A DNA stretch of 64,000 nt from Dictyostelium discoideum (taxonomy: Eukaryota): assembly GCA_000004695.1 (NCBI GenBank), contig CM000154.2, positions 2,720,001 to 2,784,000 of the forward strand, given 5' to 3'. The translations under genes and the position numbers were made by a program. Below the pieces are notes generated by a model. The model searched no databases and was not told the DNA's origin. It saw only the letters and a list, made by a program, of their open reading frames with translations. Positions 9,986 to 42,600 of this stretch are shown in pieces; position 1 is the first letter of the stretch, and each line of letters opens with the position of its first letter.

Positions 9986-10025
<40 letters not shown>

Positions 10026-10799: not shown

Positions 10800-11079
10800 T
10801 GTGAAATAAAATTCAACGATAACACTACAATAATAACAGAGAACCAAATAATTCATAAAATCAAAAAAGCGAGAGATGCCGAATGGGATAGAACAAGAAA
10901 GATAGTAGAAAAACAACTACGTCAAGAACTAAGATGCACTGATAACCGAGAGTCAATCAATCGGACCGCATCAATAAAAAGAAGACTCGAAAAATTCAGC
11001 CACAACTGGAACTCGAAACTCATGACCATAAACATCCCGGAACACTTCATACCATACTGCTCATATAACACCAACTACT

Positions 11080-11113
<34 letters not shown>

Positions 11114-11197
11114 ATAACAATAATAATAATAATAATAATAATATAATAATAATAATATAATAATAATAATAATAATAATAAAAATAAGAATAACAAG

Positions 11198-11241
<44 letters not shown>

Positions 11242-12078: not shown

Positions 12079-12132
<54 letters not shown>
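10800..12132 (+). mobile_element. Cluster of retroelement fragments: ORF C-terminus plus poly(A), a 123-aa ORF, and a 3'-UTR-like module ending in a 53-nt poly(A)
   Basis: 10800..11075 is the open tail of an ORF (...RCTDNRESINRTASIKRRLEKFSHNWNSKLMTINIPEHFIPYCSYNTNYS*) followed directly by A35 and (AAT)n. The ORF 11270..11641 is a basic protein with no cellular homologue I recognise. 11801..12079 (aggaaactaaccctctttcagaggccctgtaaa...aataaaatgagatcaaggagatgcaact...ttcctttaatggataaacc) is followed by A53 at 12080..12132. A second copy of this module is at 51395..51750, and a short piece (ataaataaatctattaattattgttaatttccttaatggataaac) is at 7705..7755. Confidence 0.4.
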
Positions 12133-12135
<3 letters not shown>

Positions 12136-12173
12136 AACCAATCTGGATTGGGAAATCAATTTTTATTTTTTTA

Positions 12174-21187: not shown

Positions 21188-21246
21188 GGCCACATAAATA
21201 CCAAATTAATTCGATTCAATTAGTTGAATTTAAAGTTATTGGCCCT
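21188..21246 (+). repeat. 57-bp conserved element, copy 1 (cggccacataaataccaaattaattcgattcaattagttgaatttaaagttattggcc)
   Basis: The second copy at 26205..26262 has 54/57 identity, in the same orientation, 5 kb away. Copy 1 lies inside the open 5' extension of the CDS at 21295. Copy 2 is intergenic, followed by poly-T. Confidence 0.6.
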
Positions 21247-21294
21247 TCTTCTGAATTAAACATTATTTGTGAAAAAACTGATACAATTGGACCA

Positions 21295-23346
21295 TTGGTG
21301 ACTTCACTATTGGCATATAACCCGGAAACACTATCGTATGGTAAATCTGTTGAAGTTGGGTTTGAAATACATTTTAAAGACGATTTAAATGGTATTGCTG
21401 ATATTAATTTTACTATAATCTCAGACAAAGATAAAAATGGTTTTGATTTTAATTGTAAGCCACCAGAAATAAAAAATACTCATACATGTTCTCCAAGATG
21501 GAATGTAACCATACCACAGACATTTTACATATCCCAAATGTCCACAATAGATAGCAAGGGTTATTCAACTGAATATCCTAATATTAATAAAGTAAACCCA
21601 ATGATGGAAATTGTAGAAACTGATTATAATAAACTGATAGTTACAAGTAGTGGTGAAATGGACACAGATATCCCAACGTTGGTTCATTTCATTTCTAATA
21701 TATCATATATAAATAATCAATCAGATAGATCGATTTTAGTTAACTTTACTATTGAAGATACCAATAGTGGTGTTTCAATTAAATATCAACCAACAATTTA
21801 TACAATCCCAGATACTTTGAATATTCTTTCATTTCCATGCAAACACGAAGAGGGTTTGATCAACAACACCAAATACCGCCAGGTAAATTTTTACTGCGAG
21901 TTAATGTTACCATATTTATATGGCTATCCAAACGGTTTCTTATTTCAAATTCATGGTGTTTATGATAATCATTTTAATTCTGCAGGTTTTTCTTATGAAA
22001 ATAGCCAAAGATTTGGTTTTTTCATAAATGTTACAGTTGGTGATGATATACCATTCATTGAATCATTTAAAACTGATGAATCATATATAACCTCAAAAGG
22101 TTTTAAATTTGGAATTTCACCTAGTGTAATATATAACTCCAACTTCACACAAGAACTATTAATATTTTCTCCTTCCCCTTTTTTAAATAACAGTTTTATT
22201 CAATTTAAACCAAATTTAACCCAAAACATTATTGGAGAAACTATTTTGATCTACATTAATACCTCGGAAGGAAAATCCAACACTATTTCAATTGAATTGC
22301 CATGTAAAGGAGAGCCATTATGTGGTGGTCAGTCTCAAGGAATTTGCACCCTAATGGGGTGTAGATGTAAACCTGAATATACCGGGACTGATTGCTCATC
22401 AAATATTATTATTATAAATCCAAATATTAACTTAACCGTTTGGTTGTCCAATGGTTTGGTTAAGTTAATATTTGGATTTATAATAATAATATTTGGACAA
22501 TTACCATACACTCACCATCAATCTTTGATTTCTGTTCATTCTTTAAGAGAAGTTGATTTCAATGGTAAATTGGTTAATGAATATATATTTAATAATTGGA
22601 GTTATTATGGTTCAAATAATAGTTTCTCATATATAACAGATGTCAATAATAAAAATGTACCTGATAATAATGTAAAGGTTGAGGTTTTAATTAGACATGA
22701 TAAAGATGGCGGTTTAGTAGAATTTGCCGGCAAAAATGTTCCAATTTTGCTGGGAGCTGTTAAGTATTATTTTTCTCTTTCTAAGTATATATTTAAATCT
22801 CAGTTAAATACATTACATTTGGTAATGCATGCTGCTGTAGAAACTTCACAAAAAGAAAATGTGTGCATGGGTAGTGAGTTTGGAATTGATGGTTTGGAAC
22901 AAGAATCTCAATACTTTAAAGTTCAAATCAATGGTTTTAGTCTATATGGACAATTTATGACAAGAGCAATAATAGATGGTAAATTTATATCAATCAGAAA
23001 CCTACAGGTTAATAGTTCAGATTTTAAAAAATCTTTAAACACCAACACACATTCTCAAATTTATTTTGCAATTGAAATTCCTAATTATGAAATAAGGGCT
23101 GAATTAGATCCAAACTTTAGTGTCCTCTTGGAAAATACCAATAAACCAAATTCTCAAAATTTTGTTTGTGTTGGTGGTAAATCAGGAGGTTTGACATCTC
23201 TGCAAATGATTGGAATTATAATATCTTGTGTGGGAATGTTTGTGGTTGTTATTGTAATAATTTGTTATATTTCATATAAAAAATCAACTTTTCTTCGTGT
23301 TAAAGCAAGATTTGTATCCTTGAAATTAAAAAGTCTCAGAGACTAA
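21295..23346 (+). CDS. Type-I membrane protein with EGF-like module, TM helix and short basic tail (683 aa in the track ORF); 5' end unresolved
   Basis: Track ORF starting at an alternative TTG. The frame is open back to 21109 with no in-frame ATG, so a signal peptide or first exon is missing or unrecognised. It contains the EGF-like CKGEPLCGGQSQGICTLMGCRCKPEYTGTDC and a C-terminal TM segment LQMIGIIISCVGMFVVVIVIICYI followed by KKSTFLRVKARF. Many N-glycosylation sequons are present. Confidence 0.5.
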   Translation: MVTSLLAYNPETLSYGKSVEVGFEIHFKDDLNGIADINFTIISDKDKNGFDFNCKPPEIKNTHTCSPRWNVTIPQTFYISQMSTIDSKGYSTEYPNINKVNPMMEIVETDYNKLIVTSSGEMDTDIPTLVHFISNISYINNQSDRSILVNFTIEDTNSGVSIKYQPTIYTIPDTLNILSFPCKHEEGLINNTKYRQVNFYCELMLPYLYGYPNGFLFQIHGVYDNHFNSAGFSYENSQRFGFFINVTVGDDIPFIESFKTDESYITSKGFKFGISPSVIYNSNFTQELLIFSPSPFLNNSFIQFKPNLTQNIIGETILIYINTSEGKSNTISIELPCKGEPLCGGQSQGICTLMGCRCKPEYTGTDCSSNIIIINPNINLTVWLSNGLVKLIFGFIIIIFGQLPYTHHQSLISVHSLREVDFNGKLVNEYIFNNWSYYGSNNSFSYITDVNNKNVPDNNVKVEVLIRHDKDGGLVEFAGKNVPILLGAVKYYFSLSKYIFKSQLNTLHLVMHAAVETSQKENVCMGSEFGIDGLEQESQYFKVQINGFSLYGQFMTRAIIDGKFISIRNLQVNSSDFKKSLNTNTHSQIYFAIEIPNYEIRAELDPNFSVLLENTNKPNSQNFVCVGGKSGGLTSLQMIGIIISCVGMFVVVIVIICYISYKKSTFLRVKARFVSLKLKSLRD

Positions 23347-23898
23347 TATTTCACTAGAAAAAAATTATTAAATAAATCATTTTATGAGAAATTTTATAAT
23401 CGAAATCTCTTTTATTTCGAAAAATGAAATTATTTGATAGAAATTGCATATTTTTTTTAAAGTAAAATTTGAACACAAATTTATTTATTCTTTCATTTCT
23501 TAAAATAATTTTTTCTAATAATTCTTTAATTTTAAAGAAATGATAGAATTATTTGTCCCATACCAAAATTATATATGATAAAATTAATAAAAACAAAAAA
23601 AGAGAAAGTTTTGAAAATGAAATTTTATTAAATGTTTACATTGGACCTATCAGTGAATAATTGAATTAATTCTAAACAAAAAAAAAGTTTTTTTTGAAAA
23701 AGATTGAGTTATCCCGGAGAAGTTCATTTTTTAAACAAAAACAAATTATTTCAAAAAAAGTTTTTTTTTTTTTAAAAAATTCCAAAATCTTTTAGCCAAA
23801 GTTTTTAAAATCTTTTTTTTTTTTTTTTTTTTTTCAAAATTTCAATTTAAAAAAAATAAAGGAAAAAACACACCAAAATTAAATAAGTAAGAATAAAA

Positions 23899-26002
23899 AT
23901 GAAATATTTATTAGTATATTTACACATATTACTATTTTGTTTATTAAAGATCAATAGCCAAAAGTATTGCACTTATAGTGGTGTTGGAGAAGATTATAAT
24001 ATCAAATTTGATGTCTTACAAACAAAGTATGTAATTTTTTTTTTTTTTCTTTCTCTTCTTTTTTTTTTTTTTTTTTTTTAAAAAAAAAACCTAATTATTT
24101 TTTCTTAAACGTTCAAACAGTGGTGGTATTGGTTTTCTATACTCATATTTAAGTGTTATTTTTACAACTTGTAATTATACTATTCCTTGTGGTAGTAATA
24201 GTAATAATGTATTGTGTGGATCATATCATTCAACTGTTCCACGCAAGTATCTTTCATTGGGATTTGTTAATGGCAGTACACATAGTTATAGCAAAGACGG
24301 ACTAATGATAACATATATATCACAGGATACAACAAATGATAATGATTGCAAAAGATATACAACAAATGTGATTTTTCAATGTAGACCAGATGGTGATGTA
24401 TCCGATTCATTAGATGTTGGCATCGACAATATACTTATTGATTCATGTATTGTTGAATTCACACTCTATTTACGTACAGTGTGTCAAACATGTCCAAACT
24501 GTTTAAAAACACATCAAACATCATGTAATGTGAAAAGTGGTTGGTGTACTTGTGATGGTAATACAAAAGGTTTAAATTGTGATCAATTAAATGCAAATAT
24601 ATCATCGGTATTAACACCAACAATTAGTGGTGGTGATGTTATAATGTCTGGTGATTTTTCAAATATTTATAATATTAGCTCAAGTATTACAATTTCAATT
24701 GGTACTTCAATTTGTAATAGTGTTATTTTCTCAAGTAATAAATCACAAATCAAATGTACGATAGGTGCAGGTGAAGGTGATCAACAAATTAAATTATCAG
24801 ATGGAAATGGTGCAACATTAATATATGATGGATTTTATTATAGAGCTCCTTGTTCAGTCGAATGTTCACCATTTGGTAAATGTAATGATCACGTTGGTAA
24901 TTGTATTTGTAATGATGTTGCAATTGGTACAGATTGTAAAACTTTAAATTTACAATTAGATTCAGTAACACCAACATTTGTAACTGGTGGTCAAGTTTAT
25001 TTAAATGGTAATTTCCTAAATGTCAAAGATCTTAGTCTAACTATTAAAATCGGTGATATAGAATGTTCAGATGTTAAATTCAACGATACTAATTTCAAAG
25101 TTTTGCAATGTATAATTCGAAAAGGTGAAGGTATTAAAGATATTATAATATCATCAGGTTTGCTATCATTTTCAAAAGCAAAAGCATTCGAATATCAATA
25201 CTACAAATGTCCACTCAATTGTTCAACACCAAATGGTACTTGTGATAATAATACTGGTAATTGTACATGCCATAATGAACATTTTGGTAATTCTTGTGAA
25301 TTTACTCGATGTCCACTCGATTGTTCGACACCAAATGGTACTTGTGATAATAATACTGGTAATTGTACATGCCATAATGAACATTTTGGTAATGGTTGTG
25401 AATTCACTCAATGCCCACTCTATTGTTCAACACCAAATGGTACTTGTGATATTAATAGTGGTATTTGTACATGTGATAATGAACATATTGGTAATGGTTG
25501 CGAAATTAAATTTATTGAATGTAAACATAAATGTTCAACCAAACATGGAATATGTGATAATGATAGTGGTAATTGTAAATGTGATACTCAAACAAAAGGA
25601 TTAACGTGTGAAGAATCAAGATTATTAATTGAATCATTAGACTCAATCAATTCAAAAGGTGGTACAATAAATATAATTGGTTATTTTGGAAATACAACAT
25701 CATTATTAACAATTAAAATTGGTGAATCACAATGTAAAAATATCAAAGTATTCAATGAAACAACATTAAAATGTGATATTGGTGAAGGTAAAGGTATTCA
25801 TAATATTACAATCATTGATGATGACCTTTCGTTCACAGCAATCAATAAGTTCCAATATCTCGATGAAAAAACAAAAATCTCAAAAATATCGAGAGGTGCA
25901 ATTGCTGGTATTGTTGTTGGTTGTGTTGTTGCTGTTTCATTAATTGGTTCTATTGCTTTTTATTATCATCACAAAAATAAAAAGGTTAATCTTTTCTTCT
26001 AA
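23899..26002 (+). CDS. Type-I membrane protein: signal peptide, MRH-like domain, IPT/TIG-like and three tandem EGF-like repeats, TM; join(23899..24026,24121..26002)
   Basis: Exon 1 is MKYLLVYLHILLFCLLKINSQ/KYCTYSGVGEDYNIKFDVLQT (track ORF 23899..). A phase-2 donor AA|GTATGT sits at 24027 and the acceptor CAAACAG at 24120. Exon 2 is the track ORF 24212..26002 extended 5'. The MRH-like Cys pattern is C..Y..G...F / CGS...LCGSY / CKRY..NVIFQC / CIVEFTLYLRTVCQTC. Three nearly identical 40-aa EGF-like repeats (CPLNCSTPNGTCDNNTGNCTCHNEHFGNSCEF) are encoded by a 120-bp tandem DNA repeat at 25201..25560. The TM is AIAGIVVGCVVAVSLIGSIAFYY. Confidence 0.65.
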
Positions 26003-26204
26003 AAACTAAAATAAAATTTAACCATTATGGTTTTTTATTACAATAATTAAAATTTCCCAATTATTTTTGATATTTTTCTTTTTTTTTTTTTCTTCCAACT
26101 ATGATTTATTTTATATAATTTTGTGTATTTTTGTGTGCTTTATTTATCTATACTAAATTCATATTAAAAATTAATAAATTTAAATTGTTATCAATTTTTT
26201 TCGG

Positions 26205-26262
26205 CCACATAAATATCAAATTAATTCGATTCGATTAGTTGAATTTAAAGTGATTGGCCAAG
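26205..26262 (+). repeat. 57-bp conserved element, copy 2
   Basis: cggccacataaatatcaaattaattcgattcgattagttgaatttaaagtgattggcc. See copy 1 at 21188..21246. Confidence 0.6.
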
Positions 26263-26762
26263 CTTTTTTTTTTTTTTTTTTTTTAAATTATTTTTTTAAA
26301 TTATTTTTTATTTTTTTTTTTTTTTTCATTTTTATTTTTTTCATTTTTTTTTTTATTCTGGCACATCACCTAACAAAAACAAAAGGTGAAATTTGTTTAT
26401 CGTGCAATAACTCTGTTTTGAAAAAATAAAAATAAAAATAAAAATAAAAATAAAAATAAAAATAAAAATAAAAATAAAAAGGATTTAAAAATTAAAAAAA
26501 AAAAAATAAAAAATAAATAAAAAATAAAAATAAAAATAAAAATAAAAAGGATTTAAAAATTAAAAAAAAAAAAAATAAAAAAAAAATAAAAAATAAAAAT
26601 AAAAATCAAAAAAATTAAAATTGAGGTGTTTTTTTGAGAAAATACCAACAATTCAATACCAATGTCTAAGACAGCCATAAATATTTTTTCCCTATTCCAC
26701 CAACTATAAAAAAAAACAAATAAAATAGTTTTATTAGTAAAATTTAAATTTTACATTTTTAG

Positions 26763-27556
26763 ATGTTATCAGAGTTTTTTAATAATATTACCTCATTTTT
26801 TGTTAATATTTTTTCATTATTTGAGGGAAAAAGAAATATAAGAATATTAATGATAGGTTTAGATGGTGCAGGTAAAAATCAATTCAATAGTTTTGATATT
26901 AGAAAAAATAATAATTTAATAAATAATAACAATTCATTTTTTAATTAAAAATTATTTTTTTTAGGCAAATCAACACTTTTATATAAATTAAAATTTGGTG
27001 ATGTTATTAGAACAATCCCAACAATTGGTTTTAATGTTGAAATAAGTATGTATCAATTTATAGGAATAAGATTGTATTAAATAATATATAATATATTATT
27101 TAAATATACATATAAAACAACCAATTTTATTAACATTAATTTACATTTTTTTTTTTTTTTCTATTTCCAAAAGTTGAATATAAAAATTTATCAATGAATG
27201 TATGGGATATAGGAGGTCAAAATAATATTAGAGCGTTATGGCGTCAATATGATCAAAGAACAGATGTATTCATCTTTGTAGTTGATTCTACTGACCGTGA
27301 AAGATTTGATGAAGTTAAACAAGAAATCAAAAATATAATTGAACAAAACAAAAATGAATCAAGTAATGCTTCATTATTAATCTTTGCAAACAAACAAGAT
27401 ATGCTCAATCCAATTACACCTGCAGAATTAGTTAATTCATTGGATTTAAATTCATTAACAAATAAAAAATGGCATGTTCAACCTTGTAGTGCAGTAAGAG
27501 GAGATGGTATTTACGAAGGTTTTGACTGGATAGTATCCAACTCTAGTGGAAAGTGA
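26763..27556 (+). CDS. ARF-family small GTPase (ARF/ARL-like, no Gly2 myristoylation site); join(26763..26871,26965..27045,27174..27556), 190 aa
   Basis: Two phase-1 introns (G|GTAAAAAT...TTTTAG|GC and A|GTATGT...CAAAAG|TT) rebuild the P-loop [76 protein letters not shown]...LLIFANKQD...[23 protein letters not shown]. These align with ARF1 switch I/II, the NKxD motif and the C-terminal SAT-GDGLYEGLDWL. Confidence 0.75.
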
Positions 27557-27774
27557 TTGCATTTATAAAGGTTTTGATTGAAGGGGTAGTATTTAACAAT
27601 AGATTATTAAATTAATTTCATTATCAAATAAAAAAATAAATATAAAACTATATAAAATGAATTGGGGGCAAAAGTAAAACAAAAACACATCTCTCCTAGA
27701 TAGATTGATGATGTTTTTTAATTCTCAATTTAATTTTAATAATTTTAAAATTTTTTATTTTTCATTAATATTAA

Positions 27775-27996
27775 GGGTTTGGGAGAGGTAGCACTCTTTT
27801 TATAAACTCTGAAATTGTGCAATACAGAGCGAATGCTATTTTAGATGTAATAAAGGCATGCCGATATCATAACATCTAAACCTCGAATAAAAAATTATTT
27901 TAAATTCGAATGCTTTCACTTAGAAAGCAAGAACGATTTTAAACGTTCTAGAACAGATACTACACTTGATTAAAGCTATTACGCTTCAAGAAGAAT
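27775..27996 (-). ncRNA. U2 spliceosomal snRNA gene, divergent in stem I (about 220 nt)
   Basis: The minus-strand transcript AUUCUUCUUGAAGCGUAAUAGCUUUA-AUCAAGUGUAGUAUCUGUUCU-AGAACGUUUAAAAUCGUUCU... contains a 21/21 match to the universally conserved U2 branch-point-interaction region GAUCAAGUGUAGUAUCUGUUCU. A perfect stem-loop IIa equivalent (AGAACG-UUUAAAA-UCGUUCU) follows, then an Sm-like AAUUUUUUA and a 3' end ...CUCUCCCAAACCC. The block is a GC-richer island in the 740-bp gap between convergent genes. A DUSE-like TCCCAAAA lies about 85 nt upstream (plus-strand 28081..28088) and a TATAAAGG about 50 nt upstream. Confidence 0.6.
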
Positions 27997-28151
27997 TGTG
28001 ACTTATGCTTTATTAAGGCAAAAAGTGATTTGATTTGTTTTTTTATTCTTCCTTTATATTATTATTAATAAAATTATAATTTTTGGGAAAAATATTTTTA
28101 ATTCTTTTGAATTAATTACAACAATTAAAAAAACATTGTTGAAATTCCATT

Positions 28152-28212
<61 letters not shown>

Positions 28213-28298
28213 AAATCAACACACATTGTTAAATTCTTTTTTAAATATCAAAAATAAACTTTTTTTTTTTTTTTTTTTATTTAATTTATTTAATTTAT

Positions 28299-30977
28299 TT
28301 ATTTATTTACTAACTTAAGAAGTTCATCAAATGTTTTAAACATATTAGTGACAAGTTCACTTCTTTCTTTAATATTAAATATTGATAATTCAAGTTTTTC
28401 AGCATCTCTAGATTTTTGTAAATCTTTAATTGCATTAACAGAATCAAAACCTGATGACATATATGAATAAGCTTTTGAAACATTAAGACAATCGACTGGA
28501 GCTAAATCTACATATCTTTGGAAATATTTTCTAATATCTTTATAATTTTCTGGCATATTGCCAATCATGGTAGAAGGCTCATCCCTTGGATTTGAAGTTT
28601 TAATATGTAGGGCATAACCTAAAAGATAGAAAACATATTCATTTACCATTGGTTTTGAAATTGTAGTATTATCGAAAATGTATTTCAAATCTTTGATAGC
28701 ATTTTCAAAATCACCAGCATAAATAAAACATTTACCACGAAGTGCCAAGAAATCGAAATCATATTTGAATTGTGGTTGATTTTTAAAGAGTTCCTTAAAT
28801 TTCAATATTAAATTGTTTCTTAATAAATCACTTTTTACATCAAGTGATTCAACAGCAAATAAAATTAAATTTGATTTTTTATCAGATTTATCCTTTGATA
28901 TATTTTTTTGACAATGTTCTTTAATTTTATCTTTTTGAATTGGTTTTAATTGAGCTACATAAAATTCTGATATTACCAATTCATACAATGGATCTAATGA
29001 TTCCTCAAGGTTACCTTGGTCAAACAATTTTTCGAAATCATTTTTTAATTCGATGGCTTTGATTAATTTCATTGCCATTTTTGAACCTTTATATGAATCC
29101 TCAACTAAACGAGGAAGATTTGCATTAAAGTCAATTTTAGATCGATTCAGAAAGGTAGATATCCTCACCTTGATTAGCAAAGTAGCTTTTGTTTGATATT
29201 TCTTTAACATTGGAATCATTACAAAAATCATCTGCCAATTTGAGATCATTCGATTTAAATGATTTATCCTGTTCCAAGATATGACCATATCTGAATACGA
29301 GTCTAGAGTAATTATCTTTTGCTTCAGCTCCCATGTCTTCACTTATTTCAGCAACTATTTTACATAGTTTAGCACTTCTAACAATGTCTCTAACTTTACC
29401 AAATATTAAATCTTGGAATTGAAGTTCATCTTGAAATAGAGTTTTACTATATAAATGCATTTATACCTTCTTCTGAATGTAATTGATTTCACAAGATTTT
29501 TCAAAAAAGTATAAACCTTTCTCAATATCCATATCGAAACCATCCTTACCGAAATAGAATCTATCTGCTAAATAGAAATTAAAGAATTGAATTTGATAAA
29601 ATGGTCCATTCTCTTCGAATTCGTGTAGATCTTTCTCTAAAGAACCATCCCTCATTCTTTTAACCTCATCTTTTGTAAAGAATGGTTTCAATGAGTAATG
29701 ATAATTTTTATTAATTTTCACTCCGTAACCTTTATCCTGAGCTTCTGATAAAATTCCTAAACCAAATGGTAGCCCAAGTGATGCAGAGTCAAATAAGAAT
29801 GGTATTGACTTTGCATAGTCTTTATCTCGGTGGAAGTTGTATTGAACCCTTTTCTAAAACACGTATAAGAAGGTCTTCATAAGGTTTATTATACTTTTTA
29901 GCGATTTGAATAATTTCATCCACCCTTTTTGCTGGGACACCTTTTGTTGGGAATTTCATATCAACTTTTTTAATATAATTATTCAATTCTTTAACTATAT
30001 CCCTTTTACCAGTATTTGCATCATAACATCTTTCTGATAGCTTCTTTTCAGTCTCTTTCTTTGTATATTGTACATCCTTGGCATCCTTATCAAATGATAA
30101 TGCAATATCATAGAAAGTTAATGCAATATCATATTGTCCGATATATTCATACGTTTGACCAATACGAAACCATCCTTTATACCACAATGGTCTTAACCCA
30201 ACTGAATCAATTGCATCATCTCTTGAATCTAATATATATTTAGATTGCGTATATCTTTGTGAAGCAAATTTATAGTTATTTACAATCCATTTATAATGTT
30301 CTAATCTTGAAATTGATTTATTACTTTTTATTATTGATATAGTTGTAGGTGAAATTTGTTCACAAGAAGCCTCCTATGCTAATTCATAAGATTCCACTGC
30401 TTCTGGATAATCTTTTTTAGTAAAATATTGGTTTCCAATATCTTTAAATTTATTAACTTTTTTTTCAACTTCTAATGTTGAATCAACTTGTTTATCTTTA
30501 AATAATTCTTTTAAATCATCGTCATCCCTATCAAATTCTAATTTACAAATTAAATTATTTTCATCTAAAACCGAAATTGATTTTTTAATATTATTAAAAT
30601 ATGTTTTAAATTCTTCATTTGATAAATATAATCTATATGATTCTTTATTTTAATAACTTTTTTTTTTAAAAAAATTAATATATATTAATATCTTTTTATT
30701 ATTTTTATTATTTATTATAAATTATTTTTTTATATTTACATTTTATATAATTTAATCTAATTTTTAATAATTCTTTATTTTCAATATCAAGTTTTGATTT
30801 ATTTAATTTAGTATATGGAGCTTGTAATACTTTTGTTAATAAAATAATATCCCAATTTGCTAATGAACCTAAATCAACTAATTTTTTTTGTTCTAATGGT
30901 AATTCTTTGTAGATTGTTATTTGATAAATATTTTCCAAATGGAGGTATAGAACTCCATTTTTGACCATTTGATTCAA
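28299..30977 (-). pseudogene. TPR/Sel1-like repeat protein gene carrying two in-frame stop codons and two frameshifts (probable pseudogene)
   Basis: Five consecutive minus-strand track ORFs (30708..30977, 29822..30187, 29461..29721, 29137..29460, 28299..29342) form one homologous reading unit. (i) TAG at 30374..30376 sits in-frame inside a TPR helix (...KDYPEAVESYELA*EASCEQ...), with an open frame for 100 codons on either side. (ii) A frame change follows within about 30 nt of 29822-29850; the -1 frame continues as Sel1-like ...DYAKSIPFLFDSASLGLPFGLGILSEAQDKGYGVKINKNYHY... (iii) An in-frame TAA sits at 29461..29463 between ...EKSCEINYIQKKV and MHLYSKTLFQDE... (iv) A frame change lies between 29137 and 29342. 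It is bridged only by an atypically GC-rich 64-nt GTGAGG..TTTAG candidate intron (29105..29168). Sel1/TPR signatures include LADRFYFGKDGFDMDIEKGLYFFEKSCE and WYKGWFRIGQTYEYIGQYDIALTFYDIALSFD. Confidence 0.5.
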
Positions 30978-31270
30978 TTAACCATCTTGATTTAAATAAT
31001 TCTATTAAAATTGGTTTACAAGAATTTAAAAATAAATTATAAATTTTAAAAAAATTAATTCTTTATCTTTTAATGTCATTTTATTATAAATAATAATAAT
31101 AACGAATTTTTGGACAATGAAAATGCATAAAAAAAAAAAAAATAAAAAAATAAAAAAATAAAAAAAAAAAAATAAAAATAAAATAAAAAATAAATAAAAA
31201 ATAAATAAAAAATAAATAAAAAATAAATTTTGAGAAAATACATGTTGCTAACACAATATGCAAAAATCAA

Positions 31271-32007
31271 GCAGCCTTATATTCAAATGGATAAATTTAT
31301 GATTTAAGACCGGAATTATCCAGCAGGAGTAACGTATAAGTATTCTAGCGACAATCTAAATTCTCAAAGATTCAAATTCTCCAAAGGTATCAGTTGTATA
31401 AACATCTTGTTTAAGTAAAAATCAAACTGTTTTATTCAATCAATCAGTATCATGCTCATTAAACAAATATATGACATGCTCTTTAGATTATCATCATCTT
31501 CCTTGTTTTCATCGTCATCCTCGTCTGTTAACGGTGGCAATAATTCATCAACTACACCAACAATATCAATATCATTAAACTCTTCCACATCAGATTCATC
31601 AACATCGGCCTCTTCAATGTCATCATCATCCTCTTCAATAGAACCTGATGAATATGTAATCACTAGTAAATTTGATATTATCAACAATAGATTAACACTT
31701 GAAAATCCATATAACAAAACAATCAGTTGTATTGGTGACCGAAATGCATACTCTATATTCAAACTTTAGTTGCACAATTGTTCCATTCAATCAAACAGAA
31801 ATTATCATAGAATGTTATAATGAAAACTCTTCAATTTTAACATTCACAGAATCTTTTGAATGTAATATTGGTTATTCAATGAAATACTCATTAAATATTC
31901 CACAAACTACTTCAATTGATGATGATATTAATAGTAGCAAAAGTAGTATCAATAACTCAAGTCACACCAATAGTGAATCTCTCCAAATCCTAAATAAAAT
32001 TAATTAA
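31271..32007 (+). pseudogene. Rearranged partial duplicate of the giant IPT/MRH gene (exon junction region plus last 0.67 kb of the CDS), frame-disrupted
   Basis: 31271..31310 matches 37561..37612 (end of the MRH exon ...LNGDLYDLRP). 31303..31323 (ggaattatccagcaggagtaa) matches 37724..37744 at the start of the last exon. 31330..32007 is about 90% identical to 47255..47925 (the final 0.67 kb of the 3380-aa ORF, including its stop region). The 9.5 kb in between is absent. The two track ORFs 31452..31769 and 31699..32007 are in different frames, so indels disrupt the copy. Confidence 0.6.
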
Positions 32008-32167
32008 TTAATTTTCATAACAATTATTTTTAGAACTTATTAAGTTTTATTTTTGTTAGATATTGAAATTATAATAGATTTATTTTTTTGTTTTTAAGTA
32101 GATAGAAGTTTTTTTTTAAATGAGTTAAAGAGTACAAAGGAACATTGTAACATAGGTTGAACTTTTT

Positions 32168-35046
32168 TTACAAATTAACTTTATAGTTGTATATTTGATC
32201 ACGCATTGCACCTTTTGATATTTTATTGGCATCTGCAAGTATTTTATTCCAAGATTCTCCGACAATATCAAATACTCTGCAATTAAATATGTCTCCATTC
32301 TTTCCCTTTAAAATTATATTTTTGGTTAATAAAAATTAATAATAATTAATAATTATAATAATTATAAAAATAATAATAATAAAAATAATAAAAGTTGATA
32401 CAAACTAAATCAGTTAATAAAAATCCTTCACGAAATTGTTGGCAATATTTGTAAAGGTCTAAACAAGGACTATAAGGACTACGGTTATATATATGATGAA
32501 CTGTAACCACTGTTTGATCTATAATTATATCTTTTCCACAAAAACTAATAACATCTTGATAAGTTTTAAATTGTTGTGTCAACATATTATTATTATTATT
32601 AAAAAAATAAACTTTGTTATTTGAGTTATAAATATTTCCAAGAAGCATTCTTAGAGCAATATCCATTTCAAACATATTGTAACCATCTTCTTGACCTAAA
32701 GGATCTATAAGTTTTTCTATACCTTCTAAAGCAAATTTAGTTATTTGTTGATCATCATCATCTCCATTTGCTTCATAGAAATATGAAATTATCTTATTTT
32801 TTTCTGTACAAAGGTACTTAGTTTGAAAATTGTTACAATTATCTTCATCTTTACAAAAAACAATATGTGGATAATAAAAATTTGACTCCCAACAAAATTG
32901 AATTGGGGCATCCAAAGTATAAAGATTGTTTTTTCTTATAACCATTTCTTGAAATGTTTTAAAATCTATTTTACCACCACCATTAATCTCTACATTCAAA
33001 TCGATTTTGTCTGATGGTGGTGGAAAACTCATTGATGATCCAGTTAGTTGATAATGTTGTTGAATTTTACTTATTCTTTCCATATCATCACTATTTTCTT
33101 TAATTACCAACCTTGAAATAAAATCATTAATACCTTCTTTAACTTTTGAGTTATAAAATGTCCTTTCTCCACTTGAACTTATATAGTAATACGAATAAAC
33201 TTTTTTTGAAAAAAATTTACTAAGAGTTGGGCTTTTGAAACAATGTACTGATCCTCCTCTATGAGCCTATTTTTGAGTGTTATGAAAAATCAATTTTATT
33301 AAAACTAGATTTTAGAAATCCATAATTTAAATATAAATTTTTACTTACCTGTTTTTCCATAAAATTATTATCACCAACACAAAACCATATATAATCATAT
33401 TGATTAGGTTGGGTTGGTACAACTTCATCAGGAAAATCTCGTTTAAATTGAATAACTGAAAAAGCTTGTTTTGAATGATCCTTTTTTCTTGTAATAATTT
33501 TATTATTAGGAGCATAACCAGTTATATCTTCAACTTGATATACTTTACGTTCAAGATTTGTAACTTTTCCTGTTTCAATGTCATTATAATGTTGAGTTTG
33601 TAAATAAAAGTTTCCTAATAGTGAAATTTGTTGACCACCAAAATCCATCTTTAAGGTTGAAATGTATGTCCAAATGTTTATTAAATTTTTATAACTCAAT
33701 TTACTGGGATCCATATATCTTCTTACACCATTAATATAGTTTTTCCCTAATTGGTTATCTTTGTTATAAAATTGTTTTTGATAAAAATATAATTTTTCTG
33801 AATATTGGTTATAAAGTGTTTCTAAATGTTGCTTTTTACTGTATTCCGAAAAATAATATGCCTGGTTTAAAAAGTTAATTTTTTTTTTTTTTTAATAAAT
33901 AAGGTAATTTAAAGATTTTGATTAGATTAATGAAAATACACATACATGCTTTGCCAAAACATACAATGGGAATTTATCATTTTGGTCCAATATTTTAACA
34001 TCTTTAACAATTCCGGCTGTTACTTGAGATTCTCGAATATTAATATTTTCGTAATGAATATTTCTCTTTTGAAAATCATTTGTATCAGGTATTCTCATAA
34101 AGCTAACTCTTGGAAATTTGGCAGGATCTAAATCATCTAATATATTTGTTAACTCTAATGATGAGAGTCCCCAATTGACCGCCAAACCATTAACGTAACC
34201 AATAACTGAATTTGTTAATACCAAATGTCTATAGATACCAACTTCAATCCCTGTTTTTGAAATCGGATAGCAATATGCATACTGTGCTTGTTGTAATTTT
34301 GGGTTCTTATCTTTTGGTATTAAATTCAAAAATTAATATTAATAATAAAGGAATGAAATTGGTTAAATGTATGAAATAATGAACCATTACCTCTTAAATT
34401 TTTATCTTTATGATTAAAAACTTCTAAACCAGGATTAAATCCACCTGTTTGTGGCTTTTTTGCAAATTTTCCTTTCTCCATAGTTTCATCATTTCTACTT
34501 GTTCTAAACAAAGGAAATGCTGTAAAACTATGCATCACATGTATACCACCATCTTTGTTCCTACAAGTTCACAATGTGTTTAAAATAATAAATCAATTTT
34601 TAAATTAAGAAATTAATTTTCCTTTTTTTTTTTTTTTTTTTTTTAAAAAATTTAAATAAAATTAAAAATTAAAATATTAATATTTACCAAATAAAAAATC
34701 CTTTTGAATGTCCACCTATTGGATCTTTATCTCTTGTTTCATCTGGATGATCATTGTAGGTAACATAATTATAATCTGGGTTTTCCATTTGGTTGAATGT
34801 TAATAAAAACGCTGATTCACTATCATATCTTAATGAATATTCAATTCCTATTTTTTCAGTTATGGTATCAGAGAAACTATTCCAATAATAAATTCCACCT
34901 TCTTCAGGTAACTGGTAAATGTACCATTTTCTTATTTTATCGTTCAATCCAATATCTTTTCCTCCTTGTAAACACATGGGCTGACAATAAAATAATTGAA
35001 TATTAAATATAATTAAAATTAAAAAAATTAAAATAATCTTTTTCAT
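32168..35046 (-). CDS. Secreted multi-exon protein, possible Ntn-hydrolase/phospholipase-B-like enzyme; complement(join(32168..32305,32406..33266,33348..33861,33946..34310,34391..34560,34688..35046))
   Basis: Exon 1 (track ORF 34684..35046) starts with a signal peptide MKKIILIFLILIIFNIQLFYCQP and ends TG|GTAAAT. Five further GT..AG introns join the track ORFs 34326.., 33922.., 33280.. and 32346.. in frame. The final 45-aa exon GKNGDIFNCRVFDIVGESWNKILADANKISKGAMRDQIYNYKVNL* replaces the implausible read-through tail ...INFYYFYYYYFYNYYNY. The functional call rests only on overall size, secretion and motifs such as AHRGGSVHCF, and it is weak. Exon 4 is 1 nt off a multiple of 3 (caveat at 33301). 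Confidence 0.45.
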
Positions 35047-35099
35047 TTTATTTGTTGTAATTATTTTTTTTATTCTTTTTAAAGAAATTAAATTATTTT

Positions 35100-35119
35100 A
35101 AAAATTAAAATAATTATAA

Positions 35120-36689: not shown

Positions 36690-39600
36690 GCCAAAAAATA
36701 ATCCCACATTCTCTTCATTATCAATTTCATCAACATTGTTGGATTTATATCAAGGAAATGTTGATAAACAAAATAAACCAGTTTTCTTTGAAAAGATAAC
36801 ATTGTTGTCAATGATTACAAGTTTAAAAAATAAACAAGTTATCGATATTGAATCATTTTCAAAAGTATTATTAGAAAATAATAATTTAGAAATTGGTAAA
36901 TCAATTGAAAATATATTATTTTTAAATAAAATAATTTCAACTTGTTCACTAGTTAATTGTTCAACTAATACATCATCCTCTTCAAGATCAATAAAAGCAA
37001 TTTTAAATCCATCAACATTTAACAATACAATTTCACAATGTATTTATTATGATAAAACTAGAAATCAATATTATGATTTAACTCCATTAATGTTGTATGT
37101 ATTTATATATTTTTAAAATAGTATCAATAATAATAGGAATATTGAATAATATAATATTAATATTTTTATTATTAAATTATATATTATATTATTCAATATT
37201 ATTAGACCATCAAATCAATTTTATAATGTAACTAAAGCATCAGTTACAGGAGGTGCAGTTTTTTTTAATTTTTGTACGAAAATTACAAAATGTGATTCAA
37301 TTGCATCAACAACCAAACAATCAGTGGCTTGTCAATCAACCATTGAACTAGCTTCTCTTAATCTTGCACATACTACAACTTTTCCAACCACTGATGGTTT
37401 AACACTTGCATATACAGCACCTGCTACAGGTACTTGCTCACCTTCAAGAAAATTGTCATATGTTTTCGTATGTAATCTTGCTCAAGAAATGTTAGCTGAT
37501 GTCACTGTAACTGCCAATGCATGTACTTTTACTCTTACCATTCAAACAAAATATGCATGCAAGAATCAAGCAGTCTTTTATTTAAATGGAGATCTTTATG
37601 ATTTAAGACCATTACAATTGTAAGTTTACACCCCTTTTTTTTTATGATCATAATAAATTATTAATAAAATCTTTATATTATTAGAACATATCCAAAACAA
37701 TTTCAAGTTAGATTAACACCATGGAATTATCCAGCAGGAGTAATTAGATATGTTTATTTCAATATTTTTGCAAAATCTAAAATGTGTGAAAATACAACAA
37801 CTGGATCAAATCATGCATGCTATATCGATAGTACAAATAGTGGAGTGATTGTTCCAATGAAGGAGCCAGTCTATACAATTGAAACTCAAGATTTAATTAA
37901 AATTCAATATTTTAGTACAGCCCCTTATTTTCCAAGTTGCCCAAATCCTGTATTGGAAATTAATATCAAATGTAATCCAACAGTTGATTATCAATTCCCA
38001 AGTTCAGTTTCTTATGAAGATATGTGTAGTTATCCAATTCTTATTATTGAATCAAGATATGCATGTCCAACAATGCGTTTCTTAAATGGTAAACAATTTT
38101 ATAGTTTAGAATCCTTACAAAAACAATCAACTAATCCATATCAAGTAGCATTTGGATCCAATTATAAATTACTTTTTAATTTTGGTGGTATTGTTGATAC
38201 ATGTGTACAAGCTATGCCAGCAACAAATCCAACAAAAAGAATTCAAGCTTGTCAAATTCATAATACCAATCAAACTGATGTTCGTATAATTGGTGTTGTT
38301 AATTTAGGTCCATTCGTTAAATTCTCTTACAATTCAATGACATTAGAGTATTTTACAGAAACATTAACAAGTGAATGTCCAACCAATGGCAATCGTAGAT
38401 CTATTAGATTAGTATTAACCTGTAATCCAACCACAGATTATTTAGTAACTAGTGTAGTCGAAAGTCCATTATGTGTCTTCCAAGTAAATATAGGCTCAAA
38501 GTATGCTTGTGATTCATTGATATTTTTCAATGGGTATAGTTTTACAGATTTAACACCATTGAAATCCCTCCAAAGATACACTGATATCAGTGGTGGTAAC
38601 ACTCTTACTCGTTTATATTATTCAATTGGTGAAGCTCATCCAAGTTGTTATACACATGCAACTGCCAATTCATCATTAATTTATCAATCATGTACTTTTC
38701 CAAACTCAACAGTTTCACAAATTGGTGGATTAAAGAATAGTTCTTATTCATTTATAAATGGTGGTAAGAGTTTACAAATTACCTATTCATCAGATGTTAG
38801 TAGTAAAGTTAAATGTGGCGTTTCCTCAACCCAAACTTTTAATGCCCTTACATTTCAATGTGATCCAGTAAATGAATTTGTTCAATCCCTATATACTATT
38901 CCAAGTGTTTGCTATTATGAGGTTAAAATTAATTCATCATATGCATGTTCATTTCCAAAACTTGAAGATTCACCCAAAGCTATAACATCAATCTCTCAAC
39001 CAAACGGTTTTGCCGGTGATCAGTTAACCATCAATGGTGTAGCGCTCCATCAAACAGATAAGGTTATTTTCTCTACACTATTATTTGATGGATCAGTTCA
39101 TAATGAAGTTGCAACAATTATTTCAAAAACATCAAATCAAATCATAGTTCAAATACCATATGGTTATAGAGATTCTGTAATTTATCTCATATCTGCACTT
39201 GGAGTAAAAAGTAATAGTGTTCCATTTTATTTTTCTCCAAATGTTGATCTTTTAATTCCAGAATTTGAAATAAATAAAATAAATAAAATTTATTTAATTG
39301 GTAATGGTTTAGGTTCATTATTTTCAGCAGTACCAAGTTATTGGGTAAATGTATATGCCACAAGAAATTTCACAGGAAGATTCAAGAGTGAATTAACTTG
39401 TGTTTTTGATAGATATTGTTCTACAGGTGGATCCCAATTTCAACCTATACCTTTACCAAATGGTCAACCAGGTATAACATGTATTGAAAGTGAATATTAT
39501 TTAAATAATACCTCTCTTAGATCAAATTTAACAGATGTAGTGGTTTGTCTTGAAATTCCTTATAATATTGGTACTGGTACGATTGATGCTATTGTTTTCG

Positions 39601-42600
39601 GTCCTGGTAGTCTTTCTCAAGTGTTCTCTTCATCCTATAGGTATAAAGCCCCAACTATTATACCACCAAGTATTGATAGTAATGTTAAATTAGTGGTTCA
39701 AAATGAAATAATTACAATCAAAGGTGCAGGTTTTCCAAATTACTCCTATAATAAATATAGTTCAAATCTTGCATGGGAGAAAAGCTATGTTTCATTTGGA
39801 CCTTCTTATCAATGTTTAAATGTTGATTGGAGAAAAACAAATGAAATCTATTGTAAAATACCACCTGGAATTGGATCAAATCTTTTATTATCAGTTACTG
39901 TTGGTGATATCACCTCTAAAGCCTCTCTAAATACAACAAATAATTATTATATTTCTTATAATACTCCAACTTTAACACCAAATATTTTATTTTCTGGTGA
40001 ACCAAGTACTCCATCTAAAATCACAATCACTGGTAATTATTTTATTCCAATTGAATTAGTGGTTGCTGCAACTAGTACTCCAAGCATAATCAATTCATTG
40101 GAAAATTATATAATGATTGGTAATGGTAGAAAATGTGAAAATGTTCAATGGATTGATATAAATACAGTTATTTGTACTCCACCAATTTCAACAAGTTCAA
40201 ATCTCGATCAGTTATATCCAATCTCTATAACAGTTGGTGGTCAAACATCAATTGGTGGTAATGTAAATTTTAGATATTACAATGCTTCTTGTTTTTTCCC
40301 TTGTAATTCAAAACCAACCGTAAATACTCCTTCAAATTTTGTATCAACTTTATATGAAAATGGAATTTGTTCAAATCAATTAGATAATAATAATATTCCA
40401 AATGGTAAATCAATTCAACAATTAGAACAATTTTTCATTGATAATTGGACACCAAATACAATTAACAATGATTGGAAATCTGGTCAATTTTATAAAACAT
40501 TCTTTAGAGAACCAAAACAAACCATTTCAAGCTTATCTCAATTTATTGTACAACAATCAAATGATTCAATTTGTGCCTACGATAATTTATCAGTTACTCC
40601 ATATATATCAGTTCAAGATTTAATTACAATTAGCAATGATTTAAATAATTTAGTTGAAAATTCATTTAAAACTTTAGAAATCGAAAATGGATTCCAAATT
40701 TCCTATTATAATGTAACAAGCAATTCAAATGGTAATGGTCTTGCAATTGTAAAAAGCAATGATAAATTATGTAGTTTCGTTGAAAGTTCCTATGATGTTC
40801 CAAGTTTAAATCAAGCATTACAATTATGTTTTGAATCTTGCTATTTCTATTTTTGTAATGATACTACTCAAAATTATCAAATATTATTAGCTAATTCAAA
40901 TGATTTAAAAAGTATTCTATTAAAATCTGGTATTTGTTCAAATGATATCGAACAATATAATTTCCAACTATTAGAATCCATACTATCGAATCAATTATTT
41001 TATAATGAATTTGAAAGTGATTGGTCAAGAGGTCCACTTTTAAATTTACTTTCAAATACATCAAAGGCAATCAATCAAATATCACCATTTATCAAATTAA
41101 ATTTTCCATTAACATATAGTTGTATCTATGATACACCATCAGCAAGTAAAATTACAATTTCAAAATTAATAGATATAGTTGATGATTATAGAAGATTAAT
41201 TGTTAATAAAGTTTATAATGAAACTAAGGATTATGGTGGTGGTATTTTGAAATCTTATTTTTTCAAATTAAATAGTGATAGTAATACTAAAGGTCTTGTA
41301 ATAGTTACTCGTGATAATAAGATTTGTAGTATCGTTGATTCTTTATATTCAGATTTTACTTCAGATTCAGTTATTACAACTTGTGATATGATTTACTCTA
41401 TTACATCTGTTCAAGTTATAAACGATTCAGTTAAACCATATAGGGTCAGATTTGAATTACTTGGAAATTTCGTTGGTGATATTAAATTTGGTGATGATCA
41501 AATTTGTAATCTCGTTTCAACAGAATTTACAGGTCTTTATGGATATAGGGAATGTTTATTTGATGATATTAAAAATTCAGCCACATTAACATATCAAGCA
41601 AATGGTATTACCATAGTCGATGATTTTAGATTTAAATTCCCACAACCAATAATTACAAATATTGAATATTCAACCACACCATTAGTAATTGCAAATTCAG
41701 ATATTACAATCACAGGTTTAAATTTATTTAGAGATAATGATGTAGTGAATTTTAAAAACTTAAAAGTAATGATCAATCAACTTGATGTTACATCAACAAT
41801 TAAAGATTCAACAATAAACCCAACAACTGGTTTTTCAACATTTAAAATCAAAGCAATTGGTAGGGGAGAGGCAAACAGAATCATTGTTTATTCAGATGAT
41901 TTTGAAATTCGAACTAATAAATCAATTATGGGTGTAGATTTTTCTCTTATTTATACTTTAGAATCACCAATTTTATCATCATTATCAAGCACAACAGGTC
42001 AACGTGGTGACATGATTAAATTATTTGGTTATTTCCCACAATGTATTCAATGTAATGAAACCATCATTTTATTTGGTGACAATCAAGTTTCTGATTTTAC
42101 AATTATAAGTTCAACAGAAATTCAAGTTATTGTACCATATGGTTTCGATAAAGTACCCATAATAGTAATGATTAATCAAGTTTTCAATCATGATGATAAT
42201 TGGGTTTATTTTTCATATCCACAACCAGAAATTCATCAAATTATAAAGAGTTCAAGCATTGAAACCTCATCAAATAGTCCATTTTGGGTTTTTGGTATTG
42301 GCTTAAATCCACTTCCAACAAATCCAGATTCATTCTTTACAGCTTCTTTACTATCAACTATTTACGATGCTGATAATGATGTAGATGGTGATAATCTTAA
42401 ATTGGAATGTGAATTTTCAGACTTTTGTTATAGAAACAAAGTTTATTATATTGATGGTGGTGATGGCACTGAAAATAATCAAACAATTCCAAGACCAACT
42501 TCTCAAATTGATCCAAATAATTTTGATCCATGTATAGAGTTGAAATCTCAATATTTTGAGAATGTAGAATTTGATACATATGTTTGTTATTTAATTCCTG

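Follow-up and report, generated by a model that had tools for sequence, protein, structure and literature searches.

A fairly recent non-processed pseudogene of a TPR/Sel1-type gene in Dictyostelium discoideum AX4

A stretch of 64,000 nucleotides of Dictyostelium discoideum DNA (the window) contains, on its minus strand, a reading unit of TPR/Sel1 type that is broken by stop codons and frame changes. The question raised by this locus is whether a product is still made from it, by splicing or by recoding, or whether the gene is dead. The locus is a real, fairly recent, non-processed pseudogene. A literature search returned nothing on the locus; the source of the assemblies and a HEPN survey were found.

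Extent of the locus and its intact orthologs

The pseudogene occupies positions 28299-31079 of the window (minus strand), from the ancestral ATG (31079-31077) to the ancestral TAA (28301-28299). The first-pass annotation had placed the gene start at 30977; the actual ATG lies at 31079, which lengthens the 5' end by about 100 nt. Its alignment with the intact ACTFIR gene (L012, 10001-12830) runs over the full length, with conservation of the start and stop codons and of both splice sites, donor and acceptor. ACTFIR_002016 (KAM9970169.1, 911 aa) and ACTFIW_008103 (KAM9974644.1) are intact orthologs from tropical 'D. discoideum' isolates (Holland et al., 2025, PMC12745789) and are uninterrupted at every site of an AX4 lesion. 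The ACTFIR gene consists of an ATG, 118 codons, an intron of 94 nt and an open reading frame of 796 codons, yielding 911 aa. The same 796-codon frame is present in ACTFIW. Both genes occupy the position that the AX4 locus has on chromosome 5, flanked by a DNase II-like gene and arrF, and share its exon-intron structure; identity to AX4 is about 95% for coding nucleotides and 88% for protein. Their frames are uninterrupted, whereas the AX4 copy carries eight disabling lesions.

The exon 1 remnant (30740-31079, minus strand) corresponds to ancestral codons 1-118 and the first base of codon 119. It is followed by the sole real intron (30657-30739, minus strand; 83 nt, GTAAAT...AAAG, 3.6% GC) and by the exon 2 remnant (28299-30656, minus strand), the counterpart of the 796-codon frame of ACTFIR and ACTFIW. 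Because the intron survives at the orthologous position and the neighbouring genes run collinear with those of L001 (ACTFIW) and L012 (ACTFIR), the pseudogene is not a retrocopy. Collinearity of these two loci with the window includes the intergenic DNA, at about 91% nucleotide identity. The window itself is AX4-type DNA: its copG exon matches XP_636291.1 at 100%, and the adjacent arrF does not differ from XP_636231.1. A homolog search with the C-terminal exon of the DNase II-like neighbour as query came back empty, and arrF together with an exhaustive search was used instead. In the public ACTFIW model, the one-codon first exon and the 3' end are artefacts. At codon 11, ACTFIW has a run of six T and ACTFIR a run of seven; the shorter run reflects a true frameshift or else a homopolymer error.

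A functional paralog had been expected. None was found in the AX4 genome, none lies within the 64-kb window, and no AX4 protein from the locus was among the matches of either protein search. Instead, intact orthologs occur in other lineages, and a second copy occurs in the independent Nanopore-plus-Illumina assembly GCA_054883475.1 (AX4-like). This second copy is equally dead.

Lesions and the timing of inactivation

Four interruptions had been listed before, and all four are present on the minus strand: the TAG at 30376-30374, the TAA at 29463-29461 and two frame changes. The frame change near 29835 is one extra C at 29836, and the one within 29137-29342 is a 5-nt deletion at 29150/29149. The count of four was too low. 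Relative to the ACTFIR ortholog, AX4 has seven frameshifting indels (-7, -8, -1, +1, +5, +4 and -5 nt), one nonsense codon and one in-frame 27-nt deletion, that is, eight disabling lesions and an in-frame loss. The earlier list lacked the deletions after 31054 (7 nt), 30919 (8 nt), 30648 (1 nt) and 29694 (27 nt, in-frame), as well as the 5-nt insertion at 29483-29479. The direction of each indel is read from the intact frame of ACTFIR and ACTFIW and not from an outgroup, because D. firmibasis, which has no family member beside arrF, lacks the gene at this locus.

All lesions are described here in minus-strand order. Lesion 1 (31053-31054) is a deletion of 7 nt (TTTAAAT) from ancestral codons 9-11; it shifts the frame into a TAA 17 codons from the ATG. 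Translation from the ancestral ATG thus ends after 17 codons, and a full-length product is impossible. Lesion 2 (30918-30919) is a deletion of 8 nt (AAATTATC) around codon 57, which brings a new ATG at 30968 into frame with the remainder of exon 1. Lesion 3 (30647-30648) removes one T around codon 122, nine bases past the splice acceptor. Lesion 4 (30374-30376) is the nonsense change TTG>TAG at ancestral codon 213, within the first TPR. Lesion 5 (29836) is the inserted C, outside a homopolymer run. The in-frame deletion of 27 nt (29693-29694) takes away ancestral codons ~440-448 (LAMQCALVP) and with them part of the first Sel1-like repeat. Lesion 6 (29479-29483), an insertion of 5 nt (ATTAC), pairs with lesion 7 (29461-29464), an insertion of 4 nt (ATAA) that creates the in-frame TAA at 29463-29461. 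Lesion 8 (29149-29150) is the 5-nt deletion, around codon 627, by which one copy of a TGAAT tandem pair is gone.

Coding sequence continues past the lesions, as had been proposed, in open stretches of 91, 183, 130, 107 and 347 codons. Such lengths are not random: at 0.097 stops per random codon of local composition, their probabilities range from 9e-5 down to 4e-16.

Constraint acts on the intact orthologs. The dN/dS is 0.19 between ACTFIR and ACTFIW and about 0.30 between AX4 and either of them. On the AX4 branch it is 0.32, an apparent rise based on few changes (about 46 synonymous and 67 nonsynonymous, versus 16 and 13). With 0.19 between the intact genes and 0.32 on the AX4 branch, this branch was therefore mostly spent under constraint, which fits the earlier description as recently inactivated. 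Under a simple two-rate model, the time after inactivation would cover roughly the last sixth of the AX4-to-intact-clade divergence (dS about 0.016). In the AX4 lineage the gene may have been no longer needed, or its function may have been lost, after which the lesions accumulated. The interval 31079-28299 (minus strand) is very probably a non-processed pseudogene at its ancestral chromosomal position in the AX4/AX2 lineage of D. discoideum.

Alternatives to a dead gene

Loss of the full-length gene could leave a function behind, in a truncated protein or in a regulatory or antisense RNA. The relic has kept its start codon, splice sites and stop codon, the 8-nt deletion joins the ATG at 30968 to the reading frame of the remaining exon 1, and the relic was copied as part of a 13-kb segmental duplication. 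Copying along with neighbouring genes, however, needs no selection. The reading frame from 30968 meets a stop about 30 codons past the intron, owing to the 1-nt deletion of lesion 3. The C-terminal frame of 347 codons starts with GTG and has no ATG near its entry into the ancestral frame. In two sister lineages, ACTFIY and ACTFIZ, the gene has decayed independently and much more severely, which speaks for a dispensable locus. A residual function is quite unlikely on these grounds, and the AX4 copy would be a relic without function.

Lower still is the probability that the gene is functional and that several very short introns splice out every lesion. GCA_054883475.1 annotates both copies as a product of 765 aa spanning exactly 30968-28299, so at least one public assembly models the locus as a protein, which is possible only via implausible mini-introns. 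GT-AG combinations were enumerated exhaustively. No path whatever exists from the native ATG. From the ATG at 30968, paths that remove less than 460 nt need the real intron and at least five mini-introns of 40-99 nt and 16-42% GC, each of them within sequence that codes for protein in the orthologs. A first enumeration (introns of at least 45 nt, exactly 372 nt in total) gave zero solutions; when the intron minimum was relaxed to 38-40 nt, 15 six-intron solutions gave exactly 765 aa. In each of these solutions, the five extra introns measure 39-99 nt with 16-42% GC, whereas real local introns have 3.6-13% GC, and a GTAAGT-like donor is missing from them. Examples of the predicted mini-introns are 30571-30528, 30457-30374 and 29492-29430. 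They would cut the continuous conserved coding sequence of ACTFIR and ACTFIW, TPR and Sel1 helices included. Downstream of the real intron, some 28 codons would be translated in the wrong frame (IKNHIDYIYQMKNLKHILIILKNQFR), and the model depends on a start codon that exists solely through the 8-nt deletion. A product of the 765-aa type is what a gene predictor forced to yield an open reading frame would produce. The 64-nt intron considered in the first-pass annotation does exist as a GT...AG string (29168-29105), with a GC content of 34% and not 38%; the enumeration, set against the GC content of real local introns, leaves no plausible splicing that removes the lesions.

Errors of sequencing or assembly in the reference, with a gene that is intact in the organism, have next to no probability left. 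In favour of this explanation stand two single-base indels among the lesions and a genome of extreme AT content that is difficult to assemble. Neither single-base lesion, however, sits in a long homopolymer run. Across 31156-28279, the entire gene, nine contigs assembled from at least seven separate SRA runs are 99.9-100% identical to the window, and GCA_054883475.1 carries the same sequence in two copies with identical lesions. The same lesions in at least seven runs and in a second assembly are therefore not errors, as had already been argued; this explanation is refuted. Programmed recoding, by stop-codon readthrough and ribosomal frameshifting, has nothing specific in its favour beyond the formal possibility given by the long open stretches after the lesions, would have to combine eight separate events of five different sizes and directions for a protein that the orthologs make without recoding, and is just as negligible.

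The ancestral protein and repeated loss of its gene

With the pseudogene as the preferred reading, the decayed product can be described from its remnants and its relatives. The ancestral gene had two exons and encoded an all-helical protein of 911 residues. The order in this protein is an HEPN-like domain of the DZIP3 type (without the catalytic RNxxAH), TPR, Sel1-like repeats and a lineage-specific helical tail. Most likely, it was a protein-binding scaffold.

The remnant of the N-terminal helical domain (30563-31055, minus strand) covers ancestral residues 9-150 and is homologous to DZIP3-type HEPN, without RNxxAH. Pfam HEPN_DZIP3 gave no match to the Dictyostelium protein itself (P0012) at E<=0.1. 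Residues 1-150 of P0012 matched the PF18738-bearing proteins P0148, P0145 and P0146 with E-values of 1.6e-9, 6.9e-8 and 3.1e-6, respectively. BLASTP between P0012 and P0145 (E=7e-25) covered residues 9-468 and spanned HEPN_DZIP3, TPR and the first Sel1 of P0145. The catalytic motif [IV]RNxxAH (Rx4-6H) is kept in 16 of the 16 aligned non-dictyostelid members and in none of the six dictyostelid members; the segment aligned to RNxxAH reads LNYIKFI in P0012 and P0001.

The TPR remnant (30077-30457, minus strand) comprises Pfam TPR_1/TPR_2 matches at 30457-30356 and 30178-30077. On the repaired AX4 sequence, TPR_1 scored above threshold (42 bits versus a cutoff of 27.8, E=6.7e-11), and on P0012 it scored 35.8 bits. 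The TPR region of the structure model has a pLDDT of about 90. The family profile matches the TPR domains of Hop, PP5, SGTA and RPAP3, and a search of solved structures with the TPR part only was dominated by designed consensus TPRs. A carboxylate-clamp TPR of the Hop/PP5/SGTA type, in which Lys/Asn/Asn/Lys/Arg would hold an EEVD tail, is no more than a lead.

Two remnants of Sel1-like repeats (29440-29817, minus strand) lie at 29817-29694 and 29580-29440 and align with canonical Sel1 repeats of relatives. In the assignment to a TPR/Sel1 family, the TPR part is supported by Pfam; the Sel1 part falls below threshold in the protein itself but is clear at family level. Pfam Sel1 reached 12.4 bits on the AX4 segment (cutoff 30.7, E=0.26) and gave no match on P0012 at E<=0.1. 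Significant Sel1 matches occur at the aligned positions of the relatives P0140, P0142-P0145 and P0148. The family profile matches solved Sel1-repeat proteins with E-values up to 8.5e-94, and Foldseek with the whole model also returns SLR proteins. The C-terminal remnant (28302-29352, minus strand; ancestral residues ~560-911) is lineage-specific and is modelled as all-helical with low confidence.

A published survey describes the DZIP3/hRUL138-like HEPN family as mainly animal, expanded in a lineage-specific manner and fused to TPRs (Anantharaman et al., 2013, PMC3710099, Table 1). Eukaryotic proteins with HEPN (PF18738), TPR and Sel1 have the same domain order as the Dictyostelium protein, which differs from them in an additional helical tail of about 350 residues and in the absence of the HEPN catalytic motif. 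D. purpureum (GCA_000190715.1) encodes members of this family, P0139 with 680 aa and P0142 with 598 aa. Among homologs from outside the D. discoideum complex, P0139 stands closest (26% identity over 635 columns, E=1.6e-43); it shares the domain order of the D. discoideum-complex protein and likewise lacks the HEPN motif. An 'Arf' Pfam match beside P0139 made it a candidate syntenic ortholog. However, arrF had no tblastn match there, and the adjoining small GTPase translates as a Ras/Rab-type protein and is not an arrF ortholog, so the apparent synteny was rejected. Orthology of P0139 or P0142 to the D. discoideum gene is not established.

Two further lineages deposited as 'D. cf. discoideum', ACTFIZ (L016) and ACTFIY (L017), also carry pseudogenes at this position, on the downstream side of the DNase II-like gene; arrF was not near the locus in either. 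Their lesion sets are completely different from that of AX4, and none overlap. In ACTFIZ there are eight frameshifts and five in-register stops, and 105 nt are deleted; ACTFIY has lost about 1.5 kb and its splice donor and contains three stops. The flanking sequences give the tree (FIZ,(AX4,(FIY,(FIW,FIR)))). From the non-overlapping lesions in two cryptic sister lineages and AX4, it follows that the gene was lost at least three times.

Gene-intact isolates still form macrocysts with the lab strain (PMC12745789), and the lab strain that does so carries a dead copy. The HEPN/TPR/Sel1 ancestry with lineage-specific animal expansion, the fast evolution, with the nearest D. purpureum member at 26% identity, and the at least three separate losses within the D. 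discoideum complex bring a conflict gene to mind. That the gene was conflict-related or immunity-like, under relaxed or fluctuating selection and not simply randomly lost, is rather unlikely.

In the AX4/AX2 annotation, the locus should carry a pseudogene label, with the 911-aa ACTFIR protein as the correct ancestral product. Within the dictyostelids there is a clade of DZIP3-like HEPN/TPR/Sel1 proteins in which the HEPN catalytic motif is gone. No long-standing question is opened by the locus, and its biological weight is modest. What it offers is a clean and datable example of a single fast-evolving scaffold gene being lost repeatedly and independently in very closely related social-amoeba lineages. 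If the gene did act in conflict, its functional or non-functional state would be a segregating and possibly ecologically meaningful difference among near-interfertile lineages.

Structure of the relic and its intact orthologs

The TPR/Sel1-family gene relic (window 31079-28299, minus strand, two exons) is a genuine non-processed pseudogene of fairly recent origin, which supports the first-pass interpretation. When its repaired translation was searched against 5.8 billion proteins, one cluster matched, including ACTFIW_008103 and ACTFIR_002016 (911 aa), both from assemblies labelled D. discoideum. Such a search had been proposed to find a functional paralog. Intact genes were recovered, but they are orthologs: for more than 20 kb both loci align collinearly with the window at ~91% nucleotide identity, intergenic DNA included, which makes them orthologous segments from a diverged lineage rather than paralogs. 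The ACTFIR gene is complete, with an ATG, 118 codons, a 94-nt intron and a single 796-codon ORF ending in ELLKIINK and the stop codon. ACTFIW has the same 796-codon ORF; its sole coding length difference, T6 instead of T7 at codon 11, is either a real (fresh) frameshift or a homopolymer error. The public ACTFIW_008103 model (9932, 10001-13051 of its locus, L001) begins with a one-codon first exon and an 87-nt 'intron' taken from coding sequence, and its 3' end is artefactual, a non-homologous tail having been spliced on.

Compared with the ACTFIR gene, the relic carries eight disabling lesions and one in-frame deletion (window coordinates, minus strand). Deletions of 7 nt after 31054, 8 nt after 30919 and 1 nt after 30648, nine bases into exon 2, are followed by a TTG to TAG nonsense mutation in codon 213 (30376-30374), within the first TPR. 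One extra C is located at 29836, and 27 nt are deleted in frame after 29694. Two insertions, ATTAC (5 nt, 29483-29479) and ATAA (4 nt, 29464-29461), come next, the latter creating the TAA at 29463-29461. A 5-nt deletion after 29150 removed one copy of a TGAAT tandem pair. The first-pass annotation had named a TAG at 30374, a TAA at 29461 and frame changes at about 29835 and within 29137-29342. All four are present, the last between 29342 and 29140, but the true number of disabling lesions is twice as high. Its gene boundary at 30977 was misplaced, the ATG lying ~100 nt further upstream at 31079.

Reading from this ancestral ATG ends after 17 codons. The start and stop codons are retained, as are the splice donor and acceptor. 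Coding-like sequence does continue beyond the lesions, as previously described. Three-frame minus-strand translation yields open stretches of 91, 183, 130, 107 and 347 codons, each with a chance probability between 9e-5 and 4e-16 at a stop probability of 0.097 per random codon, computed from local base composition.

Splicing and sequencing error as alternatives

Splicing cannot rescue the relic. All GT...AG paths keeping the ORF open to the native stop were enumerated, and this exhaustive enumeration found none from the native ATG at 31079. Paths do exist from an alternative start, ATG 30968, which is in frame solely through the 8-nt deletion. Those with few introns lose at least 1.1 kb. Paths losing less than 460 nt require the real intron (30739-30657, minus strand, 83 nt, 3.6% GC) and at least five mini-introns of 40-99 nt and 16-42% GC; the other true local introns, two in arrF, have 9.7% and 13.3% GC. 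The mini-introns all fall within sequence coding without a break in the orthologs, and ~28 codons are read out of frame. A 64-nt candidate intron suggested earlier was located at 29168-29105, but with 34% rather than 38% GC. Fifteen six-intron solutions yield exactly 765 aa, the length of the gene model on window 30968-28299 in GCA_054883475.1, and this model is therefore best read as a gene-predictor artefact.

The lesions are not sequencing errors, in agreement with the first-pass annotation. At least seven separate SRA runs gave contigs that contain the truncated 107-aa and 121-aa ORFs exactly, match the window at 99.9-100% over 31156-28279 and, since the intron is unspliced, represent genomic DNA; the relic is present twice in the independent long-read assembly GCA_054883475.1, whose arrF and copG are AX4-identical; and neither single-base lesion lies at a long homopolymer run. 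Long homopolymer and low-complexity tracts (~60 T/A; T-rich repeats) flank the relic at 28136-28290 and 31100-31270, where short-read contigs from independent runs all terminate.

GCA_054883475.1 probably corresponds to the AX2-214 assembly published by Holland et al. (2025, PMC12745789). A ~13-kb block (window ~22194-35117) occurs in it twice on a single chromosome, ~175 kb apart, comprising a partial ComC-like gene, an EGF/TIG-repeat gene, arrF, the TPR pseudogene, a 156-aa model and a DNase II-like gene. One copy is flanked as in the window, the other adjoins a reverse-transcriptase element. Over the pseudogene coding sequence the copies show no difference, against 0.4% divergence in the DNase II region; the duplication is therefore later than the decay, or the copies were homogenised.

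Ancestral protein and family

The earlier TPR/Sel1 assignment holds in part. In Pfam, the repaired relic matches TPR_1 significantly (E=6.7e-11), and Sel1 occurs in homologs but reaches only E=0.26 in the relic itself; the family is corrected to HEPN-like/TPR/Sel1. Remote homologs share 22-29% identity over about the first 470 residues. Several carry HEPN_DZIP3 (PF18738), TPR and Sel1, the dictyostelid ones TPR and Sel1. The ACTFIR protein aligns with a HEPN_DZIP3-bearing homolog (P0145) over residues 9-468 (E=7e-25), and its residues 1-150 alone matched three HEPN_DZIP3-bearing proteins (1.6e-9 to 3e-6). HEPN domains typically have RNase activity (PMC3710099). Across 22 aligned family members, the signature [IV]RNxxAH is present in 16/16 non-dictyostelid members and lost in 6/6 dictyostelid ones, intact orthologs included, which makes such activity unlikely in the dictyostelid proteins.

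Among solved structures, the family profile matched Sel1-repeat proteins (up to 8.5e-94) and TPR domains of the Hop/PP5/SGTA/RPAP3 type. The AlphaFold model of the ACTFIR protein is all-helical, with good confidence at residues 4-150, 180-330 and 380-540, and retrieved TPR/SLR scaffolds exclusively in Foldseek. The ancestral protein is best read as a predicted non-catalytic protein-binding scaffold; a putative chaperone-tail-binding TPR clamp is a lead. Orthology of the closest D. purpureum member (P0139) is not demonstrable. A GTPase gene next to it was considered as evidence of synteny, a reading that was rejected.

Genomic setting, repeated loss and age

GC content in the window ranges from 15 to 35%, and its introns are short and extremely AT-rich. 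Two of its genes mark it as AX4-type D. discoideum. The coatomer-gamma (copG) exon (5427-7148) matches AX4 XP_636291.1 at 100% identity, from which the copG copies of eight other Dictyostelium assemblies differ. Immediately downstream of the relic, a three-exon reconstruction of arrF (ADP-ribosylation factor F, 26763-27555) is identical to AX4 XP_636231.1. Directly upstream, a partial copy of the 3' end (47247-47913) of a giant gene (ORF 37782-47924) lies at 31347-31981 (plus strand), with 89% identity. Two frame changes mark this fragment as another gene relic, for which one public assembly has a 156-aa protein model. A 5-kb segment (21242-26201) with the ComC-like (ORF 21295-23346) and EGF/TIG-repeat (ORF 24212-26002) genes is absent from the orthologous ACTFIW and ACTFIR loci; either the AX4 lineage gained it by insertion or the other lineage lost it. 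In the DNase II-like neighbour, the C-terminal ORF of 306 codons (32349-33266, minus strand) shares only ~77% identity with its ACTFIW counterpart. It had no homologs in the 5.8-billion-protein search, although gene models of 781-797 aa cover it in several assemblies; an index gap may account for this, or a lineage-specific extension that evolves very fast.

The exhaustive protein search also retrieved fragmentary orthologs from ACTFIZ and ACTFIY. The syntenic ACTFIZ gene, annotated in three pieces, shows its own eight frameshifts together with five in-register stops and the loss of 105 nt; among the 1-nt indels, three lie within A runs and are possibly errors, the remaining lesions are not. 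The ACTFIY copy has lost ~1.5 kb and the splice donor and bears further lesions. No AX4 coding lesion is common to ACTFIZ or ACTFIY. Distances in the flanking DNase II-like gene (FIW-FIR 0.019; FIY to this pair ~0.075; AX4 to FIY, FIW and FIR ~0.12; FIZ to all 0.16-0.18) give the tree (FIZ,(AX4,(FIY,(FIW,FIR)))), with which a copG protein comparison including outgroups agrees. Two intact lineages are thus nested among three decayed ones, which implies at least three losses of the gene. From NCBI naming and the strain table of PMC12745789, ACTFIR and ACTFIW should be isolates CR116C and OT3A, and ACTFIY and ACTFIZ the possible cryptic species M4B and S6B. CR116C and OT3A retain macrocyst formation with AX2 (PMC12745789). 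In D. firmibasis, arrF is present with no family member closer than 10 kb, and in ACTFIZ and ACTFIY tblastn found no arrF at up to 6 kb from the decayed gene; the arrF/TPR-gene neighbourhood is therefore structurally unstable across these lineages.

By the Nei-Gojobori method on 890 shared codons, dN/dS is 0.19 between ACTFIR and ACTFIW (16 synonymous, 13 nonsynonymous differences) and 0.29-0.31 between AX4 and either. The three-point AX4 branch (dS 0.099, dN 0.032) has a ratio of 0.32, in line with the recent inactivation proposed earlier. Assuming an omega of 0.19 while functional and 1 thereafter, these small counts would place ~16% of the branch (dS ~0.016) after inactivation. Read qualitatively, constraint acted on the gene during most of its history, and inactivation came fairly recently. 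The relic is a feature of an ordinary kind, of value for annotation correction and as a small example of a fast-evolving HEPN-like/TPR/Sel1 gene being lost repeatedly.
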